From Candidatus Thorarchaeota archaeon (GTDB lineage Archaea > Asgardarchaeota > Thorarchaeia > Thorarchaeales > Thorarchaeaceae), in NCBI GenBank assembly GCA_048884965.1, contig JBHLQH010000061.1, positions 1 to 13,875 on the forward strand: a stretch of 13,875 nucleotides of DNA. Reading direction: 5' to 3'. The notes beneath the pieces were generated by a model. The model made no database searches and had not been told where the DNA came from. It worked only from the letters and a program-made list of their open reading frames with translations. Positions 721 to 13,875 of this stretch are shown piece by piece. Numbering within the stretch: the first letter of the stretch is position 1; each line of letters begins with the position of its first letter. A program made the position numbers and the translations under genes.

Positions 721-1232
721 GATCCGTAATTATGTGTCATCATTGAAATGAACCGTATACCTAGAAAGTGTGGTATACAATCTACAACACTATTTTTGTA
801 TGAAATAACCCTGATTATCCTCGAAAAAGGGTAGCAATACACAGTAATTGAGTATGGTTTTTGATGATCTATGGGGTTGGGGTACCTATCCGTATTCGAA
901 AATTGAATACGGAAACTAAGGTCCTATTTTAGGAAAGGAATTGATGAACCTGGGAATCTTGATACAAGTGCATCGAAAATAATATGATGCCAATTTGTGC
1001 AAATCTATAACAAAATTAATGTAGCCTTTGAATATATGCTATTATGATATATCAAGAGGCACTTTATATAGATAATTAGATAATATTTTGATGTTACACT
1101 CAAAATGGATGATATTAACTATGGTGAAGTTGTGTGCTTTTTGAGAGTGATTGAGGGATAGAAAGAAGCTGACACCCTTGATGTTCATCAAAGAAATTGA
1201 GGGTTAGAAGAGTTGAATATTGAGGTTTTGAA
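533..1232. repeat. ATTGAGGG(A/T)TAGAA motif: perfect 15-bp inverted pair plus two direct copies
   Basis: TTTCTATCCCTCAAT (533-547) is the exact reverse complement of ATTGAGGGATAGAAA (1150-1164). Further copies: ATTGAGGGTTAGAA (1196-1209) and ATTGAGGTTTTGAA (1219-1232). Confidence 0.8.
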
Positions 1233-1389: not shown

Positions 1390-1752
1390 ATGGTATCCAT
1401 ATTCATAATCGATGACGAACCGATTCTTCATAGGCTCTACAAGGATGTATTTGCAATCAAGGGACATGAGGTGGTTGCAGATGCATATGATGGTGAAGAA
1501 GCTGTTCAGAAGTATACTGAAATGGATCCCAAACCTGATGTATTGATTCTCGATCATCGAATGCCAAATAAAGACGGGCTCGAAGCGATGAAGGAGATAC
1601 TTGGAATAGAACCTTCCGCGAAAATAGTCTTCATCAGTGCAGATGCGAATGTGCGAGAAGAAGCTATGAAGAATGGAGCGATAAGCTTTGGACTTAAGCC
1701 TGTCACAATCAGACACATGCTAGATTTGGTCGAGACAGCTGTATCAAATTAA
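1390..1752 (+). CDS. Stand-alone response regulator receiver (CheY-like) protein
   Basis: IIDDE acidic pocket, LILDHRMP phospho-acceptor Asp, FISA switch Ser, GLKP Lys-Pro. 120 aa with no output domain. Confidence 0.95.
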   Translation: MVSIFIIDDEPILHRLYKDVFAIKGHEVVADAYDGEEAVQKYTEMDPKPDVLILDHRMPNKDGLEAMKEILGIEPSAKIVFISADANVREEAMKNGAISFGLKPVTIRHMLDLVETAVSN

Positions 1753-1786
1753 TTATTTACCTGTCAATACAATAGTATCAGAGAAT

Positions 1787-2167
1787 GTGACTGAATGGGT
1801 GAAATCTTTGAGAGTGGTAATCGCAGGTGATGTTCCCCTTTTGAAATCACTTGTCAGAATGGCAATTGAAGAAGCAGGTTATACTGTAATCGGAGAGCCT
1901 GACAATGTCGAAGATCTACTCGCTATTTGTAGTTCCCATAAAATCGGGATTGTGCTTCTCGACCTTTCAATATCGGATTCCGAAAGGATGCGTGTGATTG
2001 AGAAGATTCTGGATATCGATACATACATCTCGATTATTGCGATCTCTGATTTTGTCGACGATGACAACGAACAGGTGTTATTTGCAGGTGCTCGAGGTTT
2101 CCTGCAGAAGCCATTCTCCATGTTTGACCTCATTGACATGATGAAAAAGGTCGAGCCTATTCTTTGA
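1787..2167 (+). CDS. Stand-alone atypical receiver domain protein
   Basis: Receiver fold pattern: VVIAGD, IVLLDLS, IAISD, GARGFLQKPF. Acidic pocket and the MPxxDG loop are degenerate. GTG start (1799 is an alternative). Confidence 0.88.
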   Translation: MTEWVKSLRVVIAGDVPLLKSLVRMAIEEAGYTVIGEPDNVEDLLAICSSHKIGIVLLDLSISDSERMRVIEKILDIDTYISIIAISDFVDDDNEQVLFAGARGFLQKPFSMFDLIDMMKKVEPIL

Positions 2168-2920
2168 TCATTCTGGAAGACGCGCATCAGGAAATACTTC
2201 TATTCCATCATTCTGAATCCTGAACATCACTGGTTTCATCACATGATTGGCACCACGCAACTTGATGACTCTCAGCGTTCGTATGTAATCCCCTGTTGCA
2301 TAGATCGTATCTAGCTTTATGACGCCATCGCAGATGAAATACGGCATCTCGTCATTTTGAGCTCCACTAAGAGAACGAAGCTCATGTGTCAGAAGGACTG
2401 TGGTGTTCTGTAGCACAAGCTCCCGCATGAACCCATATACCATTTGTCTGACTTCGAATCTATTCCCTGCAAATTCAAGCAAGGGACCTAATCCATCAAC
2501 GACAATATGTGTTGCCTGAGTTTCCTCAGCTTTTTGCTTAACAAGATCTGCCAATCTTGGAACAGTAAATGGTTTTTCCCTGAAAAGTGGATGTTCGAAG
2601 GCTATTAGATAATCATATCCAGATTCGGTTGGTACCAATCGAAGGGTTCCGCTTAGTATAGCTAGTTTCTTTTCGGCAATTGCAGCATCAGGATTCCAAC
2701 CAAATGCTTTCATGTCTTCAATAATGATATCTGAGGACTCATCAAGTGAAAGAAGAACTGCTTTCTGACCCTTCTTTATTGCATCAAAGATGAAATGCCA
2801 AGTGATGATACTCTTTCCTGTTCCAGGACCTCCAGCAATCAACATTGAGCGTCCTTTGATATATCCACCATTTAGCAGCTGGTCTAATCCTTCAATCCCA
2901 CTACTAATTCGTTCTTTCAC
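2168..2920 (-). CDS. Single-domain KaiC/RAD55-family (RecA superfamily) ATPase
   Basis: ISSGIEGLDQLLNGG N-terminus, Walker A GGPGTGKS, SLDES (DE at the KaiC EE site), Walker B IVVDG, DGVIKL, and RTLRVIKLRG K-x-R finger. Confidence 0.93.
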   Translation of the reverse strand: MKERISSGIEGLDQLLNGGYIKGRSMLIAGGPGTGKSIITWHFIFDAIKKGQKAVLLSLDESSDIIIEDMKAFGWNPDAAIAEKKLAILSGTLRLVPTESGYDYLIAFEHPLFREKPFTVPRLADLVKQKAEETQATHIVVDGLGPLLEFAGNRFEVRQMVYGFMRELVLQNTTVLLTHELRSLSGAQNDEMPYFICDGVIKLDTIYATGDYIRTLRVIKLRGANHVMKPVMFRIQNDGIEVFPDARLPE

Positions 2921-3077
2921 CTTTCATCCTCTCAGCTCTAGTCCATCATAGTTTAAGATATATTATTTGTTAGCTTAGCCTAATCAGGCGAAGAGAACTA
3001 CTAGAACCCTTTTGATGCCGACATTTGGGTTCTCTGGTCGTTCAAAGACAAGCTAAGCGAGAGAGTGAAGAGGACTA

Positions 3078-4658
3078 TTGAAAGATAATCCTGTAATACC
3101 GGAATTTGCAATGTACGAGGACCGTCTTACTGACTCTGAGAAGAAGGAGATTGCAAACCGTTTGACATCAGGTTTCAGAACAGGAAAGGATAGATTCCTT
3201 CACTTCACGGATATACTATCTGAGTATGTTGGAAGCGGTGAATGGCACAATCTCAGTGATGGGTTTCTGGCAATGTGCGCAAAGGCTTCCTACCTTCGAG
3301 GAATGTATGGATACAACCAGCAGCTCGCAAAAGGGACGGACAATATTATCTGTAAGGGATATGCTGCAGCAGCATATTGTCGACAAAGTTTGGATCCTCG
3401 TTGGCTAAACAACCTGAGAACCTATGTCAACCAATCCTGGCAGGCGAAGGATTACATTGCCTTTGCAGAGCTATCCGGACAACTCGCTTCAATCCTTATT
3501 GATCTTGGTTACACTGAAAGAGCAAAGCAGGTGGCATCTGAGAGCATAGAGAAAGTGACACAGGCAACGGCAAAGGATCAGAAGATTCGCACTAAGGTGC
3601 AATCTGCCCTCTTACGTTCTAGAATCCTTATGGCAAATGTGGATATCCAAGCGGGGGCAAGGGATGATGCTCTTGTTCGACTAGATTCAGCTGAAGACAC
3701 AGCTCGAATTCTGAATAACGATCTTGCTCTCACGGATGTTCGCTACTATCGTGCGAAAGTCTTGGAAGAATCCAAGGAGTACGATAGAGCTACTGATCTA
3801 CTAAACGCGGCTATTCGAAAGTACGACCGTATGGGCTACCTTCAAGGTGTTGCTGATGCGAAGAACCTCCAGGGTGTCCTCTTCATGGAACGAGGATTTC
3901 ATCAAGAAGCACGTGATCACTTTGAGGAGTTATTAGTTATTCAGCAGCAATTGAATGACCAAGTGGGTCTGGCCAAGACTTTGATCAATGTCGGTGAGAT
4001 TGACAGAGGATTAGGTCAATACGATCAGATGGAAACCTATAATCAAAGAGCGTTGGAGATAAGTCAGGAAGCTGAATTCATGCGCGGAATCGCCATCTCA
4101 AAAATCAACCTCGGCGATGTGTCATTCCAAAGGGGTGATTTTGAGAGAGCACTAAGGTACTATAGCGAGAGTATGGAAGTCGTTGACTGCTCTGGTATGA
4201 AGGATTTGAGAAACCTAATCAGCTTCCTAATTGGCGATGCACTATTCATGTTAGAACGCCCCGAACAAGCTCTTGAAGCGTATTTAGTTGCGAAAAAGAA
4301 CGCACAGGAGGCGAACTATCTAACTGAGGTTTTCAATGCTGAGGTCAGCATTCTCGTAACTCAATACAAAACAGGACAATCTCCTGATCTCTCCATCCTA
4401 AAACGAATCAAGGATGTGATTGGGGATAGTCTAGAATGGAAACAAGCGTATGATAGCAGTATGATGAGAGACCTTAGAGCTAGTATCTTCCAAGACTCAT
4501 CAATTGAGGGTGATATGTGTATCTTCTATGACCGAGAGAAGAATTTCGAATGCAGAGTAGAAAGACAGAATTCAAAGACTGGTTGTACAGGAAATCTATT
4601 CTGGAAGATTTCGATATGTCCCTATTACATTGAATTTCTTGAGAAACTTGAGAAGTGA
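3078..4658 (+). CDS. Tetratricopeptide-repeat protein (40-residue TPR_12/MalT-like repeats) with C-terminal four-Cys motif
   Basis: Repeated units such as LAKTLINVGEIDRGLGQYDQMETYNQRALEI and IAISKINLGDVSFQRGDFERALRYYSESME. TTG start with a purine-rich GAAGAGGA upstream (ATG 3111 is an alternative). Confidence 0.9.
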   Translation: MKDNPVIPEFAMYEDRLTDSEKKEIANRLTSGFRTGKDRFLHFTDILSEYVGSGEWHNLSDGFLAMCAKASYLRGMYGYNQQLAKGTDNIICKGYAAAAYCRQSLDPRWLNNLRTYVNQSWQAKDYIAFAELSGQLASILIDLGYTERAKQVASESIEKVTQATAKDQKIRTKVQSALLRSRILMANVDIQAGARDDALVRLDSAEDTARILNNDLALTDVRYYRAKVLEESKEYDRATDLLNAAIRKYDRMGYLQGVADAKNLQGVLFMERGFHQEARDHFEELLVIQQQLNDQVGLAKTLINVGEIDRGLGQYDQMETYNQRALEISQEAEFMRGIAISKINLGDVSFQRGDFERALRYYSESMEVVDCSGMKDLRNLISFLIGDALFMLERPEQALEAYLVAKKNAQEANYLTEVFNAEVSILVTQYKTGQSPDLSILKRIKDVIGDSLEWKQAYDSSMMRDLRASIFQDSSIEGDMCIFYDREKNFECRVERQNSKTGCTGNLFWKISICPYYIEFLEKLEK

Positions 4659-4704
4659 GAAAATCTAACGTACTAGCAGTGATTTTTGAATGACACCACT
4701 TATG

Positions 4705-4712
4705 TATATAAG
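4705..4712 (+). promoter_or_regulatory. Candidate archaeal TATA box for the GvpD-like/REC/inactive-KaiC operon
   Basis: TATATAAG about 40 nt upstream of ATG 4752, with SD-like GGGGAT at 4740-4745. Confidence 0.4.
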
Positions 4713-4751
4713 GCCATTATAACAACTTCAATCGCAATAGGGGATCGTTGC

Positions 4752-6137
4752 ATGAGTACTATCGGTGGAATTCCTCCGAATATAGAGGAGGTGCTGTCAT
4801 CTGACAATAGCTTTGTATTGGTAGTGCTCGGTCCGCCTGGTACAGGAAAATCCTTGTTCGTACAGGAGATTGTAAGACGGTACGAAAGTTCATTGATGAT
4901 AATAACTAGTGCTGAAAACTATGTTACAACGAATCAAAATCTTTCACAGGATATTAAGAATTGGGATAAAAGACATCTATCGCTGCCCTATTGGCATCGA
5001 ATGAGTAAGGAATTACCTCAAGATGCAACATTGACGGAGAACCTCAAGATTCTCTTGGAAATAGATTCGGATATCCCCTCAGTAGATATTGTTATAGTAG
5101 ATTCATGGACCGATTTTCAGGAGCCAATTGATACCAGTAAGAGATATGCAATTCAGCAAACTCTGATTCATTCAGTCAGAAAAGAGAAGAAGAAACTAAT
5201 TCTAGTCACTGAAGGAACTTGGAGAGATCAAGATTCACTTTCATTGTTTCATTCTGCGGATGGAGTTATCCAATTAGAGAAGATTAGGGATAACCAAAGG
5301 ATGTTTCGTCAAATCGTGATCGAAAAGATGCGGTCACATCCGATTGGTCAAGATTCCTTTCTTTTTACTTTATATGATGGTCGATTCACATACATTCCAT
5401 GGTACAAACATGAATACCCTGCAATAACTGTTGAAAGAGACCCTATACCTGATGCCTCTCCAGAACATATGTCAACTGGAAATTCTAGTTTAGATCATCT
5501 TCTCTCTGGCGGTTTTGAGAAGGGCCGATTGACATTGGTTGAAGTAGATGATCTCTCGGTTCCATACTTGGAAACGATATACATTCCCTTCCTCTCAAAT
5601 CACCTTCAACAGGGACGCCCTGCAGTGATATTGCTGCCTGAAGGATGGTCTCCTGAAACCTTCTCCAAGAGTCTTTCTCAATTCGTAGACAAATCTCACG
5701 TTGATGAGCAGGTTGTGTTCTTTGGACGACAGGCCTTAGGCACCCATACGAATACCCGTGGCATTGACTTGGATCCATGGAAAACACTCCAAGAAATTCG
5801 CTATGAATCCGGGGTCCTCGAACGGAAATTCAACCATGAGGTGACAGAGCTATTCGCTTTGGATACGCTTGAGAATATGTATGGAGCAACGAATGTGCGA
5901 AGTTTGATGGCTGAGATCTCTGCTTCGTTATCATCAACGCAGCGATCAACAATTTCTGTCCTGAGCAAAGAGCAAGCGATACGAAGTGAATCTATTTCAC
6001 ATCACATCCACCTGAAAGTTCAAGAAATAAGCGGTGTACTTAGTGTGTGTGGCATCACTCCACGCACAAATTACTTGGCAGTTCGACAGATTCTCTCTGG
6101 TGGATTTCTTGATTATGATTTACTACCAATTGTATGA
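4752..6137 (+). CDS. GvpD-like two-domain KaiC-superfamily ATPase (intact N-domain, degenerate C-domain)
   Basis: IPPNIEE..LVVLGPPGTGKS Walker A, IVIVDSW Walker B, LILVTE, ADGVIQL..RQIVIEKMRS..FLFTLYDGRF. The second domain STGNSSLDHLLSGGFEKGRLTLVE lacks the P-loop GKT, as in GvpD. ATG 4752 is preferred over TTG 4686. Confidence 0.88.
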   Translation: MSTIGGIPPNIEEVLSSDNSFVLVVLGPPGTGKSLFVQEIVRRYESSLMIITSAENYVTTNQNLSQDIKNWDKRHLSLPYWHRMSKELPQDATLTENLKILLEIDSDIPSVDIVIVDSWTDFQEPIDTSKRYAIQQTLIHSVRKEKKKLILVTEGTWRDQDSLSLFHSADGVIQLEKIRDNQRMFRQIVIEKMRSHPIGQDSFLFTLYDGRFTYIPWYKHEYPAITVERDPIPDASPEHMSTGNSSLDHLLSGGFEKGRLTLVEVDDLSVPYLETIYIPFLSNHLQQGRPAVILLPEGWSPETFSKSLSQFVDKSHVDEQVVFFGRQALGTHTNTRGIDLDPWKTLQEIRYESGVLERKFNHEVTELFALDTLENMYGATNVRSLMAEISASLSSTQRSTISVLSKEQAIRSESISHHIHLKVQEISGVLSVCGITPRTNYLAVRQILSGGFLDYDLLPIV

Positions 6138-6147
6138 GTGATAAACT

Positions 6148-6525
6148 ATGACGAAAAACAAGATCTTGGTCGTGGACGACGAAGAGATTACAACGGAACT
6201 GGCGAAGAAATTCTTGGAACGTCATGGATTTGAGGTTATTTGTGCCTACGACGGAGAAACCGCGTTGGAAACAGCTATTACCGAGAAACCAGATTTGATC
6301 CTCCTTGATGTCATGCTTCCAAAACTTGATGGATTTGAGGTCTGCAGGCGTTTGAAGAGCAGGGAGGAATTCAAAGCAATACCAATTCTAATGTTCACAG
6401 CTAAAGGATTGAGCAAAGACATCCAAGAGGGTGAGGAAGCCGGAGCTGATGAATATATCATTAAGCCCTTTTCAGGAAAGGCATTGGTTGCAACAATTAA
6501 GAAGCATCTGCGACTTGAGGAGTGA
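6148..6525 (+). CDS. Stand-alone response regulator receiver protein (canonical)
   Basis: ILVVDDE, LILLDVMLPKLDG, MFTA, ADEYIIKPF. 125 aa with no output domain. Confidence 0.95.
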   Translation: MTKNKILVVDDEEITTELAKKFLERHGFEVICAYDGETALETAITEKPDLILLDVMLPKLDGFEVCRRLKSREEFKAIPILMFTAKGLSKDIQEGEEAGADEYIIKPFSGKALVATIKKHLRLEE

Positions 6526-6539
6526 GAGGTTATTATCAA

Positions 6540-7220
6540 ATGACAGGGACTCCAATGGAGAATCATTTGGCCCCTTCCATAGTTGAGAATTTATTAAAGA
6601 AGCCTCCCAAGGGATATGTCTACTTGGTGATGGCATCTCAAGAAAGTCATTATGATCTATTCATGACCACGGTGGTTCGCAGTGCAATCGAGAATAACAT
6701 GAAAACCCTCAATGTCGTTACTGAGGCAAGAAATCGACAGCTCATGGAAGATATGACCCGTTTGCAATCTGATGAATTCCACATTCTCGAAATAGGATAT
6801 GGGCAAGAGATTCTCGGTAATCATACCTGCTCTCCGCATCTTCATGAGATCAATATCATGATGCGAAGCCTGAGGAATGTCATCTGTCCGAAAGTGGTCA
6901 CATTTGAGGCTTTGACTCCTTTGCTAATTGATTTTTCAGCACGCGATGTCGTTCAATTCTTCAAGGAGAGCGTAGAGGAGAGTATTAAGAATGGCTCAAT
7001 TGAGTTCTATCTCATTCATGCTGACACAGCTGATTCTGTTACCATGAACCAACTGTTCTCGCTGGCTCAAGGTATTATAACTCTAACAACTGCACGTGGA
7101 AAGCACTATCTCACCGTGAAGAAAGCGACGGGAATCGAGATGCCCTTCAATCCTATCGAATATGTACCTAGTATGCAAGGAACTGATAGAACGAAATGGC
7201 GTATTGAGCTAAACTGGTGA
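6540..7220 (+). CDS. Inactivated KaiC/RAD55-like ATPase domain protein
   Basis: Colinear with the KaiC fold but catalytic motifs are lost: VENLLKKPPKGYVYLVMASQESHY (no GxxGxGK), VVTFEALTPLL (Walker B region), LAQGIITL, LTVKKATG (no Arg finger). ATG 6540 follows GAGGT. GTG 6522, overlapping the upstream stop, is an alternative. Confidence 0.72.
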   Translation: MTGTPMENHLAPSIVENLLKKPPKGYVYLVMASQESHYDLFMTTVVRSAIENNMKTLNVVTEARNRQLMEDMTRLQSDEFHILEIGYGQEILGNHTCSPHLHEINIMMRSLRNVICPKVVTFEALTPLLIDFSARDVVQFFKESVEESIKNGSIEFYLIHADTADSVTMNQLFSLAQGIITLTTARGKHYLTVKKATGIEMPFNPIEYVPSMQGTDRTKWRIELNW

Positions 7221-7221
7221 T

Positions 7222-7905
7222 CTACTCAAAGTCAATTTGAATTTCCTGACTATCATTCTTCTCTTTTTCTTCATTAGAGAGACGCTCTTCAAAGGTGTTC
7301 AAAACCTTCTCAAGAGGTTTTCTAGTCGATTCGGTGTCGTCAACGGCCACAGGGCTGATATGCTGTCTTACGAGTTTGCAACTCTCGTCGTCCCATTCAC
7401 ATTCCTCCATGATTTCCTCAATCTTTCTGATATACTGCCCTCTCTGATTGACTAGCTGCATACTCCTTTCTTCTAAAGCAGATATCTGACGATTGATCTT
7501 TTCGATCTCCTGCAGAAGGACGCGTACAGCTCTAACATCATAGCGCTGCTTGGGAATTGAGACTCGTGATCTAATCATTGTGATGTGAGTTTCATGTGGA
7601 CGTAGATGTACAGCAAATGAGTTGGGAAGGATGGTTGTGGAAAGACCGAATCCAGAGCGGAGTTTGTAGTAGGTTCTTTCAGGACCAAGACTTGTTTCAC
7701 CCGCCTCAGTTTCTACTATTTCAGCATTCTCAAGCACCTCAAGATGCTTGATGATGACTCGCGAAGTATATCCTAATGCCTTGCTGAGCTCATACGGATA
7801 GTAAGGTCTCTGAGCAAGTAGTCGTAGAATCCTCCTACGTGTGATGTGACCTAGTGCTTTGAATACCGTGTCTAGATAATCTGCATCTTTCCTTGAACTA
7901 CTCAT
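7222..7905 (-). CDS. ArsR-type winged-HTH regulator with C-terminal coiled coil, resembling the archaeal Phr/HSR1 (COG1777) family
   Basis: ALGHITRRRILRLLAQRPYYPYELSKALG..KHLEVLENAEIV..GPERTYYKL matches my recollection of the Phr pattern LGNETRRRIL.LL..RPY.VSELS..LG..EHL.ILE.AGLI..RKYY. Heptad region LQEIEKINRQISALEERSMQL follows. Confidence 0.88.
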   Translation of the reverse strand: MSSSRKDADYLDTVFKALGHITRRRILRLLAQRPYYPYELSKALGYTSRVIIKHLEVLENAEIVETEAGETSLGPERTYYKLRSGFGLSTTILPNSFAVHLRPHETHITMIRSRVSIPKQRYDVRAVRVLLQEIEKINRQISALEERSMQLVNQRGQYIRKIEEIMEECEWDDESCKLVRQHISPVAVDDTESTRKPLEKVLNTFEERLSNEEKEKNDSQEIQIDFE

Positions 7906-12106: not shown

Positions 12107-13360
12107 TCAATCTTCAGCAAGTCGCAAAGCGACATTTGCAATTGTGCCTTGTTGCCAATCTTCAGGGATTCGATTTTCAAACCAGAGATATCCACCATAG
12201 TCCTCAATAATCCGCATCACTATGCTTAGTCCTAATCCAATACCATCAACGCTGTCAGTTAGGAATCTTCCTGCGATTCTAGGCTTGATATTCTCAGGTA
12301 TTCCTCGACCTTTATCGATTACACGAACTCGAACATATTCAGATGACTGTTTCCAGCAGTCTATCTCTATGATAATCTCTTCTGTCTTATTCTCTAATGC
12401 CTTGAGTGCATTTGATAGAAGATTGATGAAGACATCTTGTAGTAATTCATCGGCAAGCACACGTGTATCTGTTCCCATTTGAGAAACGATTCGAATATTT
12501 GCCTCTGGATGGCTCGATTTGATGGTGGAGATACTAGATTCGATTGCTTTCTCCAAGTTGTAAGAACTGAGTTTCTGCTTAATCTGTGCAGTGAGCACTC
12601 TCCTTACACGATTCAACAAATCATTCGCCTCTTTCGACTGTGCCAAAGCATCATGCAGCAATCCATAGGTTTTGGCAGAATCGTCCCATTTCATTGCCAT
12701 GAGTTCAAGGATTATCGTCAGGGAACCAATCGAACCACGAATGTCATGAAACAATAAGTCAAGAAGTAGATCGGATCTTCTCCTTGCACGTTTACTATCT
12801 TCAAGTAGCATAGCATGTTGGATCGATAAGCGAAGAGGGATAAAGAACTCCTTTGAAGCCTCAAGATACCTTTCAATCCGATCAGGTATGATGACATTTC
12901 GTACTTCAACGATCATCTTCGGTGTACCTTCAAAGGGGAGGAATATTATCGTCTTTGCATCAATCTCTGTGATATATCGTTTGACTTTGTCTGGTAGATT
13001 ACTTGGTTTGGCGTCCTGAAGGTTGTAATATGTTTCCCCAAGTGAAAAAATAGAGGAATAGATTTCAGAATTGACTAAATGCCTTGGGTACCACGTATCA
13101 TGTTGCCTGAAATAGGGGAGTGAAAAAATCTCCCAAGTCCCTTCTTGAAATTCTACAGCAAGTGATGGTGAACCACCTGTCATCGTAGCTATTTCCTGAA
13201 GGACTGTTGCCAGAATTTGATGGGGGTCTGAGCTCTCGATAAGAGCTCCAAGAATGTATCGTAACTGTGTGTAGTATATGGAATTCCTTTCTAGTTCCCT
13301 TAATCTCTCTTGGAATTTCTTCTCGTCCTCCGATTCGGAATTATCCTGCTCGCCATTCAC
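12107..13360 (-). CDS. Soluble sensor histidine kinase (GAF-like region + HisKA + HATPase_c)
   Basis: H-box LLFHDIRG, N-box VFINLLSNALK, G1 DKGRGIP, G2 GIGLGLSIV, GGYLWFENR..GT. No TM segment. GTG 13360 overlapping the upstream TGA is preferred over ATG 13375. Confidence 0.92.
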   Translation of the reverse strand: MNGEQDNSESEDEKKFQERLRELERNSIYYTQLRYILGALIESSDPHQILATVLQEIATMTGGSPSLAVEFQEGTWEIFSLPYFRQHDTWYPRHLVNSEIYSSIFSLGETYYNLQDAKPSNLPDKVKRYITEIDAKTIIFLPFEGTPKMIVEVRNVIIPDRIERYLEASKEFFIPLRLSIQHAMLLEDSKRARRRSDLLLDLLFHDIRGSIGSLTIILELMAMKWDDSAKTYGLLHDALAQSKEANDLLNRVRRVLTAQIKQKLSSYNLEKAIESSISTIKSSHPEANIRIVSQMGTDTRVLADELLQDVFINLLSNALKALENKTEEIIIEIDCWKQSSEYVRVRVIDKGRGIPENIKPRIAGRFLTDSVDGIGLGLSIVMRIIEDYGGYLWFENRIPEDWQQGTIANVALRLAED

Positions 13361-13875
13361 TGGTAAACACCCCATTTATTCCGTGCTTCAGCTATCTTGT
13401 GAAGAATTCTCTCCGATACTGAAGAAGGGATATCGCCATGATGGTCGCATATAATATAGCCTCCACCAGAAGCTGCATCATTGATACATCGTCTTACTTC
13501 ACTCTCAGCTTTCTCTTCATTCCAATGGGTCATCGCGATGTTATCCAAATTTCCAATCAGGATCAATTTCTTGCCGTATTTTTCTTTTATAGCCCTTAGA
13601 TTATCGGAATAGGACACAACGATCCCTGGAATTCCTACTTCATCAATCAAGGTTGGCAAGATACCCGGTGTTTCACTTCCAGCCAAAGCGAACACAGCTG
13701 CTCCCTTCACTAATTTGTAGAATTTCTTGTCTGCCTCTAATGAGATAAGGCGATATTCATCAAGCTTCATTATATGACTGGATGAAACAGGGTTGAAGAA
13801 AGCCAGTGCATGTACTCCTGTCTCTAAGAATCGATTGGCTAATTCGACCGTATAATCTACAATATAATTCACAAC
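13357..13875 (-). CDS. Uroporphyrinogen decarboxylase / MtaA-CmuA (MT2 methyltransferase) fold protein, 5'-truncated by window edge
   Basis: TGVHALAFFNPVSS, IKEKYGKKLILIGNLD, EVRRCINDAASGGGYII, GDIP. The frame is open to the window end. Confidence 0.85.
   Translation of the reverse strand, partial: VVNYIVDYTVELANRFLETGVHALAFFNPVSSSHIMKLDEYRLISLEADKKFYKLVKGAAVFALAGSETPGILPTLIDEVGIPGIVVSYSDNLRAIKEKYGKKLILIGNLDNIAMTHWNEEKAESEVRRCINDAASGGGYIICDHHGDIPSSVSERILHKIAEARNKWGVYQ

Follow-up and report, generated by a model that had tools for sequence, protein, structure and literature searches.

The DNA analysed here, referred to as the window, is the entire 13.9-kb contig of a Thorarchaeota (Asgard) metagenome-assembled genome of 4.09 Mb, and the system under consideration is a block of seven contiguous genes, g1 to g7, together with the convergent gene g8 that adjoins it. 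It is proposed, with a probability of roughly 0.6, that the locus serves in signalling, is restricted to one Thorarchaeota family and consists of two separable modules: a receiver-receiver-TPR core (g1, g2 and g4; TPR, tetratricopeptide repeat) and a trio of KaiC-fold genes (g3, g5 and g7) accompanied by a third receiver, g6. The separation of the modules is seen in natural gene loss within the family, where the trio has been lost about 11 times, always together. The genes of the locus are as follows.

1390..1752, + strand: g1, canonical stand-alone receiver (REC), core (PF00072, 76.9 bits)
1787..2167, + strand: g2, atypical stand-alone receiver, core (PF00072, 55.6 bits)
2168..2920, - strand: g3, single-domain KaiC-family ATPase, trio (PF06745, 159 bits)
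3078..4658, + strand: g4, TPR protein with a four-cysteine (Cys4) tail, core (several Pfam TPR families)
4518..4619, + strand: C-x10-C-x10-C-x10-C segment of g4, candidate metal site (cysteine conservation)
4686..6137, + strand: g5, double-domain KaiC-like protein, trio (KaiC, 50 bits, residues 45-231)
6148..6525, + strand: g6, canonical PhoB/OmpR-type stand-alone receiver (PF00072, 101.9 bits)
6522..7220, + strand: g7, predicted KaiC-fold pseudo-ATPase, trio (predicted fold; no Pfam match)
7222..7905, - strand: g8, ArsR/Phr-like winged helix-turn-helix (wHTH) protein, convergent on g7 (HTH_5, 39 bits)

Between g4 and g5 there are 27 nt and between g5 and g6 10 nt, and g6 and g7 either overlap or lie 15 nt apart; the true start of g5 is probably near 4749 and the likely start of g7 is the ATG at 6540. 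An earlier sequence-only reading had described seven contiguous open reading frames with these domains; all seven were recovered at their coordinates and Pfam agrees with the domains assigned, that of g7 being recognised through its predicted fold.

Two samples define the distribution of the locus, one of 85 genomes in 16 genera of the family and one of 400 genomes of the phylum. The complete set g1-g2-g3-g4-g5-g6-g7 plus g8 occurs in the same order and orientation at 20 loci in at least 12 genera, all of one Thorarchaeota family, with protein identities of 37-97%; the synteny that the sequence-only reading had proposed as a check on its module is therefore found within the family. The core, represented by g4, is present in 70 of the 85 family genomes and in 16/16 genera (21/23 among high-quality genomes), orthologues of g5 and g7 are present in 33/85 and 37/85 respectively, and the trio is found in about half of the family genomes. 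A single syntenic site takes four forms, g1-g2-g3-g4-g5-g6-g7|g8, g1-g2-g4-g6|g8, g1-g2-g4|g8 and g1-g2-g4, and in a further, rearranged form (L113-L115) g8 remains beside g6. The synteny extends to the flanking genes g9-g12 (a DUF389 protein, LysE, a pyroglutamyl peptidase and a 250-aa unknown protein), and gene order alone is therefore of little weight. One bin, G347, holds two full copies of the cluster (L034 on G347:C150 and L041 on G347:C166) and has a contamination of 7%. In sequence (79-97% identity) the C150 copy resembles the window more than the members of the window's own genus do, and contig C150 is probably mis-binned.

On a maximum-likelihood tree of g4 from 44 loci, g5 changes state 11 times, g7 11 times and g3 11-12 times, g6 changes six times, g8 and g1 twice each and g2 once. 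In all of the independent contrasts available on well-supported branches (8/8; sign test p = 0.008) g7 and g3 change with g5; g6 changes along with them in about half of these contrasts and g8 does not. These changes are taken to be losses for two reasons: first, remnants of g3, g5 and g7 bearing stops and internal deletions lie at the original positions in four loci (L104, L105, L106 and L125); second, intact trio sets occupy the deepest branches of the tree. The genes of the trio are not adjacent to one another, g4 and g6 lying between them and being retained, and therefore each joint loss needed two or three separate deletions. Since they have been lost together so many times, the trio genes most likely act as one unit.

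The remaining genes do not share this fate. The receiver g6 is present in 21/21 trio-bearing loci and in 11/23 trio-less loci. The core genes g1, g2 and g4 are found together at nearly every locus and persist in at least 23 loci without any KaiC gene, and in genus g12 the arrangement g1-g2-g4 persists together with the conserved motif upstream of g4. Given that neither g6 nor g8 was found in four genomes of this genus, the core needs neither of them. The reduction is nested: the trio is lost first, then g6 and then g8. At two loci g3 is the only interrupted gene, g5, g6 and g7 being intact: L031 (10700-11446) has one in-frame stop and L041 (11116-11861) a frameshift and stops; this is either a first step of decay or sequencing error.

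Two proteins of the trio exceed the PF06745 (KaiC) cut-off of 26.6 bits: g3 at 159 bits and the N-terminal domain of g5 at 50 bits, a match to KaiC being obtained for 21/21 g5 orthologues. In g3 the Walker A motif GGPGTGKS, the LDE motif and the Walker B motif VDGLGP are kept in 18 orthologues, and its description in the sequence-only reading as an intact single-domain KaiC-like protein is upheld by the conservation of both Walker motifs and the DE pair; it falls under every NCBIfam equivalog cut-off. The N-terminal domain of g5 keeps GxPGTGK[ST], the glutamate (20/21) and the Walker B aspartate across 21 orthologues, and in its C-terminal domain E-V-[ED]-[ND]-L-x-x-P-Y replaces the P-loop in 21/21. 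In a profile search g5 aligns with double-domain KaiC chains over two stretches (E 3e-18), and residues 260-335 give weak PAXNEB and RadB-type matches in Pfam, those to PAXNEB recurring in 18/21 orthologues. Thus the pairing of an intact and a degenerate domain that had been claimed for g5 is confirmed, but the name GvpD-like is a loose label, the GvpD_P-loop score of the window's g5 being 21.6 bits against a 24-bit cut-off and the KaiC score 50 bits. GvpD_P-loop matches at E <= 0.01 occur in 17/21 orthologues and weak GvpD_bR2 matches in only 2, and a PF00741 gas-vesicle search gave no match in the window's genome, the control genomes being equally silent.

For g7 (232 aa) there is no Pfam or NCBIfam match, nor any Pfam match in 22/22 aligned orthologues, and a search of PDB sequences with a g7 profile found nothing. 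The fold search alone succeeded: the AlphaFold2 model, with a predicted local distance difference test score (pLDDT) of 86.5, was matched by Foldseek to KaiC, Pyrococcus PH0284 and FlaH in the PDB (E ~1e-11, template modelling (TM) score ~0.7). At the place of Walker A stands MASQESHY and there is no P-loop, in keeping with the earlier description of a fully degenerate KaiC-like protein. By its predicted fold, g7 is a KaiC-fold pseudo-ATPase and not a member of the sequence family PF06745. The g7 family is very small, with 23 matches among 1.84 billion representative proteins. A derivation of g7 from g5 is not claimed, the hhalign comparison of the two being weak (probability 39%). The window's genome contains eight KaiC-family matches over cut-off. 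A second KaiC pair is located on contig 18 (24965-26642), one copy having an in-frame TAA stop, and beside it is a 112-aa open reading frame whose KaiB score of 25.2 bits falls short of the 27-bit cut-off.

Comparison of the receivers across their orthologues indicates that g1 and g6 retain all five receiver positions (DD, D, T/S and K), these being DD, D55, S83 and K103 in g1 and kept across 39 orthologues. In g2, whose overall sequence conservation is low, the first acidic position is Gly in 37/41 orthologues and the second is D/E in 39/41, and the acceptor Asp (41/41), S/T (33/41) and Lys (41/41) are present; judged from this alignment, g2 is without one Mg-binding acidic residue. The best NCBIfam matches of g6 are PhoB-type receivers. 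The succession of a receiver, an atypical receiver and a receiver given by the sequence-only reading thus holds in the orthologues as it does in the window. That reading had also stressed the absence of a histidine kinase, and no cognate kinase gene is present in the same operon within the block. However, the genome holds ~29 HATPase_c matches over cut-off, mostly kinases, against 11 receiver domains, three of them at this locus. As kinases able to act in trans are plentiful, being kinase-less is no distinguishing trait and carries little weight. Within the window itself, a histidine kinase gene (HATPase_c) at 12107-13375 overlaps the end of a URO-D-fold gene (region 12107-13875); this pair lies ~5 kb from the block, and its synteny with the cluster does not extend past the closest relatives (L031 and L034).

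Homologues of the trio are also found outside the family. Elsewhere in the phylum, other families carry remote double-domain homologues of g5 (26-31% identity). Four other Asgard families retain g5 paired with g6 (L055, L057, L058, L059 and L069); family f11 has g5 on its own. Families f16 and f17 have strong homologues of g3 (E 1e-55 to 1e-59) that adjoin g7-like genes and sometimes g5-like genes, surrounded by Ras-, Arf- and RagA-like small GTPases and TackOD1-HTH_AsnC regulators, with no TPR or receiver genes. Homologues of g3, g5 and g7 are seen among GTPase and regulator genes of these kinds at L064 5014-14341 (G117) and L100 2295-7200 (G125), in two other Asgard families. Judging from these homologues, the KaiC set predates the Thorarchaeota family and is associated with different partners in other lineages.

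Taken as two modules, the locus may work as follows. The core would consist of the receivers g1 and g2 and the TPR protein g4, much like a split version of the REC-TPR response regulator of other archaea, and g4 would bind the g1/g2 receivers with or without the KaiC set. The products of g3 (active), g5 (active and dead) and g7 (dead) would most likely assemble into one mixed ATPase/pseudo-ATPase complex, for which g6, always found with the trio and paired with g5 in other Asgard families, would be the obligatory partner. Histidine kinases encoded elsewhere would phosphorylate g1 and g6, phosphorylated g6 would alter the nucleotide or assembly state of the KaiC complex, and the signal would reach gene expression via the neighbouring ArsR-type regulator g8.

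A different arrangement was put forward in the sequence-only reading, namely a single circuit that mounts mixed active/inactive KaiC rings on a TPR scaffold and places them under the control of phosphorylated receivers. In support of this, g4, g5, g6 and g7 are adjacent and co-oriented in the 20 complete loci and g4 is a long TPR solenoid of the partner-binding kind. The AlphaFold2 model of g4 (pLDDT 91.6) has a solenoid of ~25 helices over residues 8-471, corresponding to 12 TPR repeats, followed by a small C-terminal part that bears the Cys4 segment, and Foldseek returns LGN/Pins, APC5 and RapF (TM 0.50-0.67 for RapF), which are generic matches for TPR proteins. Nevertheless, a single circuit is unlikely for three reasons: first, g4 and g1/g2 are unchanged in the 23 or more loci that have no KaiC genes; second, there are zero columns of g4, g1 or g2 that are conserved only in trio-bearing loci, the reverse count also being zero; third, the trio homologues outside the family occur without any TPR gene. 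As far as these alignments can tell, the core bears no trace of the lost KaiC genes, and the zero count is therefore weak evidence against g4 mainly scaffolding KaiC rings. The scaffold proposal thus receives partial support; the broader description of a KaiC-hub signalling cluster with receivers and inactivated paralogues stands, in that the neighbourhood is conserved and fits the hub class, but the cluster is not one indivisible circuit.

The C-terminal 126 aa of g4 are confined to the window's family among the 400 genomes of the phylum. Cysteines C481, C492, C503 and C514 are invariant in 44 orthologues, and the segment is a candidate metal site on this conservation; no usable look-alike of the Cys4 tail was found in the protein atlas. 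At one locus (L117; G320:C1, 234500-253500, a single-contig genome) g4 is without its first 53 residues and the 8.6 kb of the fetched stretch beyond g4 yielded neither g1 nor g2, a rare instance in which the core has itself been eroded.

At the other extreme, the receiver-TPR genes and the KaiC/receiver/ArsR genes could be two unrelated systems that are mere neighbours, without cross-talk. The synteny of the family also spans the unrelated DUF389, LysE and pyroglutamyl peptidase genes, core and trio have separate evolutionary fates, and trio homologues elsewhere sit with GTPases, all of which would be expected of neighbours that share only a site. This is nevertheless doubtful: g5, g6 and g7 follow g4 at gaps of at most 27 nt with no alignable promoter-like block between them, the sole conserved element lies upstream of g4, suggesting one transcript, and g3 is placed inside the core, between g2 and g4. 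That element, and a second one upstream of g1, have the following positions.

2987..3016 (core 3001-3015), + strand: conserved cis-element upstream of g4 (motif search and alignment)
794..911, + strand: conserved non-coding element upstream of g1 (blastn and alignment)

The block upstream of g4 reads GCGrA-N8-ACTAGAAnCCTTTTGA, with the core CTAGAACCCTTTTGA, and is the sole alignable block of that intergenic region. With up to two mismatches, the core is found 74-108 nt upstream of g4 in 34/43 loci, with or without the trio, and it is found upstream of g1 in 0/39 loci and upstream of g8 in 0/38; the exact core occurs once in the 4.09-Mb genome. On this evidence the block probably serves the g4 operon as promoter or operator. 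The element upstream of g1 lies ~480-600 nt before the gene, with its core at 803-856 of the window, and contains two short palindromes, ATACAC-N5-GAGTAT and GTATTCG-N5-CGAATAC (~886-908). By blastn it is recovered from several genera, at trio-bearing and trio-less loci alike (in L108, for example, at 91% over 54 nt); its alignment has 25 invariant columns and it has no second copy in the genome. From their position and conservation, both non-coding elements look like dedicated promoter or operator sites. A structured RNA upstream of g1 is unsupported, RNAalifold giving only -2 kcal/mol, and no tRNA or Rfam match was found anywhere in the window. The word AAAAGGnT is common to both elements and is too short for a claim.

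The absence of a DNA-binding output, as noted by the sequence-only reading, is true of the inside of the block only, since g8 directly adjoins it 2 nt from g7. This protein has a coiled-coil-like C-terminal tail and a Phr_regulator match far under cut-off, and by its ArsR-type wHTH domain it is a candidate DNA-binding output. It adjoins the cluster in 38/43 loci, with only the two state changes on the tree. Given that the g4 motif persists in genus g12, in which g8 was not found, g8 is not the only possible binder of the motif.

A third alternative is that the trio is not a signalling device and instead consists of recombination mediators of the RadA/Rad55 type. The protein atlas clusters nearest to g7 are named RAD55 family ATPase and g3 and g5 have weak RadA/RadB/RecA matches; however, the KaiC models score far above the RadA/RadB models, and the neighbours are receivers and a wHTH protein here and small GTPases and TackOD1-HTH proteins in other lineages, with no repair genes nearby, which makes this a very unlikely explanation. 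An anti-virus defence system, suggested by the variation of locus content between close relatives, is more improbable still, given that PADLOC returns only generic matches (TPR, REC, P-loop and Csa3 wHTH) and no system-specific model, that the site is fixed in the chromosome and no island, and that there is no nuclease or other effector domain.

Several observations weigh against the proposal of two modules in one signalling locus. The g4 tree was obtained by a quick search from one protein and without an outgroup, and its 44 loci were chosen by hits to g5 and g4. Neither g6 nor g8 was found anywhere in four genomes of genus g12 that are 77-92% complete, and the core persists there. The connection of the core with the KaiC genes depends on synteny in a single family, where the flanks g9-g12 are equally syntenic, and the zero count of trio-dependent columns in g4, g1 and g2 tells against this connection too. 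Lastly, g8 is missing next to an intact trio in L049.

KaiC-like hubs have received little study in archaea, and none is known to have been studied in the Asgard group. Here, loss repeated in nature marks the gene sets, with g3/g5/g7 as a set, g6 as its required partner and g1-g2-g4 as an independent core, which yields a short list of complexes; sister genomes with and without the trio provide a natural set for a target search. Trio homologues adjoin small GTPases in other Asgard lineages, which suggests that prokaryotic and eukaryote-like signalling may be linked. This raises the possibility, put forward tentatively and considered rather unlikely, that the trio is an obligate ATPase/pseudo-ATPase switch, a portable hub older than the family that links bacterial-type phosphorelays with eukaryote-like GTPase signalling. 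If so, the same hub would be wired here to two-component receivers and a TPR protein and elsewhere placed beside small GTPases, in the closest archaeal relatives of eukaryotes.

Of the systems already described, the archaeal KaiC hubs are the nearest. Makarova, Galperin and Koonin (2017), as summarised in Galperin et al. 2018 (PMC5847659), proposed archaeal KaiC-like 'signal transduction hubs' with iKaiC domains and links to receivers, and fusions of REC-iKaiC and REC-TPR are recorded in other archaea (PMC5847659). As the class is outlined in that summary, a KaiC-like ATPase, iKaiC and signalling domains share a conserved neighbourhood, and this combination is found here: KaiC ATPases, inactivated paralogues and REC lie together, and signalling would pass by protein contact and not through REC-HTH fusions (PMC5847659). 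The locus differs in that the parts are separate genes, in that three KaiC-fold genes with fixed activity states are lost as a set, and in that the receiver-receiver-TPR-Cys4 core to which these are attached is restricted to one Thorarchaeota family.

The resemblance to the KaiABC clock is limited to architecture. Receiver-fold domains contact the KaiC system in the cyanobacterial clock (the KaiA N-domain and CikA), and g5 has the head-to-tail double-domain arrangement of KaiC; unlike KaiC, its C-terminal domain is without a P-loop, and the circ_KaiC model scores g3 at 83 bits against a cut-off of 546 bits. No KaiB over cut-off is present in the genome, the one weak match being that at the other locus on contig 18, and nothing points to an oscillator. 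CirA of Haloferax volcanii is a lone KaiC-like regulator of motility and cell shape that affects transcription and is encoded in the archaellum cluster, and the G33E mutation of its Walker A glycine is classed as disruptive (PMC10983859). A KaiC-like ATPase as a regulator is common to both systems; CirA, however, is a single gene in an archaellum cluster and there are no archaellum genes here. Membership of ArlH/FlaH is not indicated for g3, which scores 61 bits with the ArlH NCBIfam equivalog against a 215-bit cut-off.

The Elp4-5-6 ring and Rad55-Rad57 are hetero-oligomers of RecA/KaiC-fold paralogues, some of them dead, that are functional only together. The trio likewise comprises several RecA-fold paralogues of which some appear dead, and it is the C-terminal domain of g5 that has the weak PAXNEB (Elp4) matches. 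These matches are below or near threshold and cover a common N-terminal motif only; nothing indicates homology closer than the superfamily, and the trio may assemble in a comparable way. For the core, the closest parallels are systems in which a TPR protein and a receiver act together, as in Rap-Spo0F, where the TPR protein binds a receiver. Both these and the REC-TPR regulators of archaea (PMC5847659) unite receiver and TPR in one system, and the structural matches of g4 include RapF. In this locus, however, REC and TPR are encoded by separate genes and g4 has a family-specific Cys4 tail. The Foldseek matches being common to TPR solenoids in general, g4 is not assigned to the Rap family.

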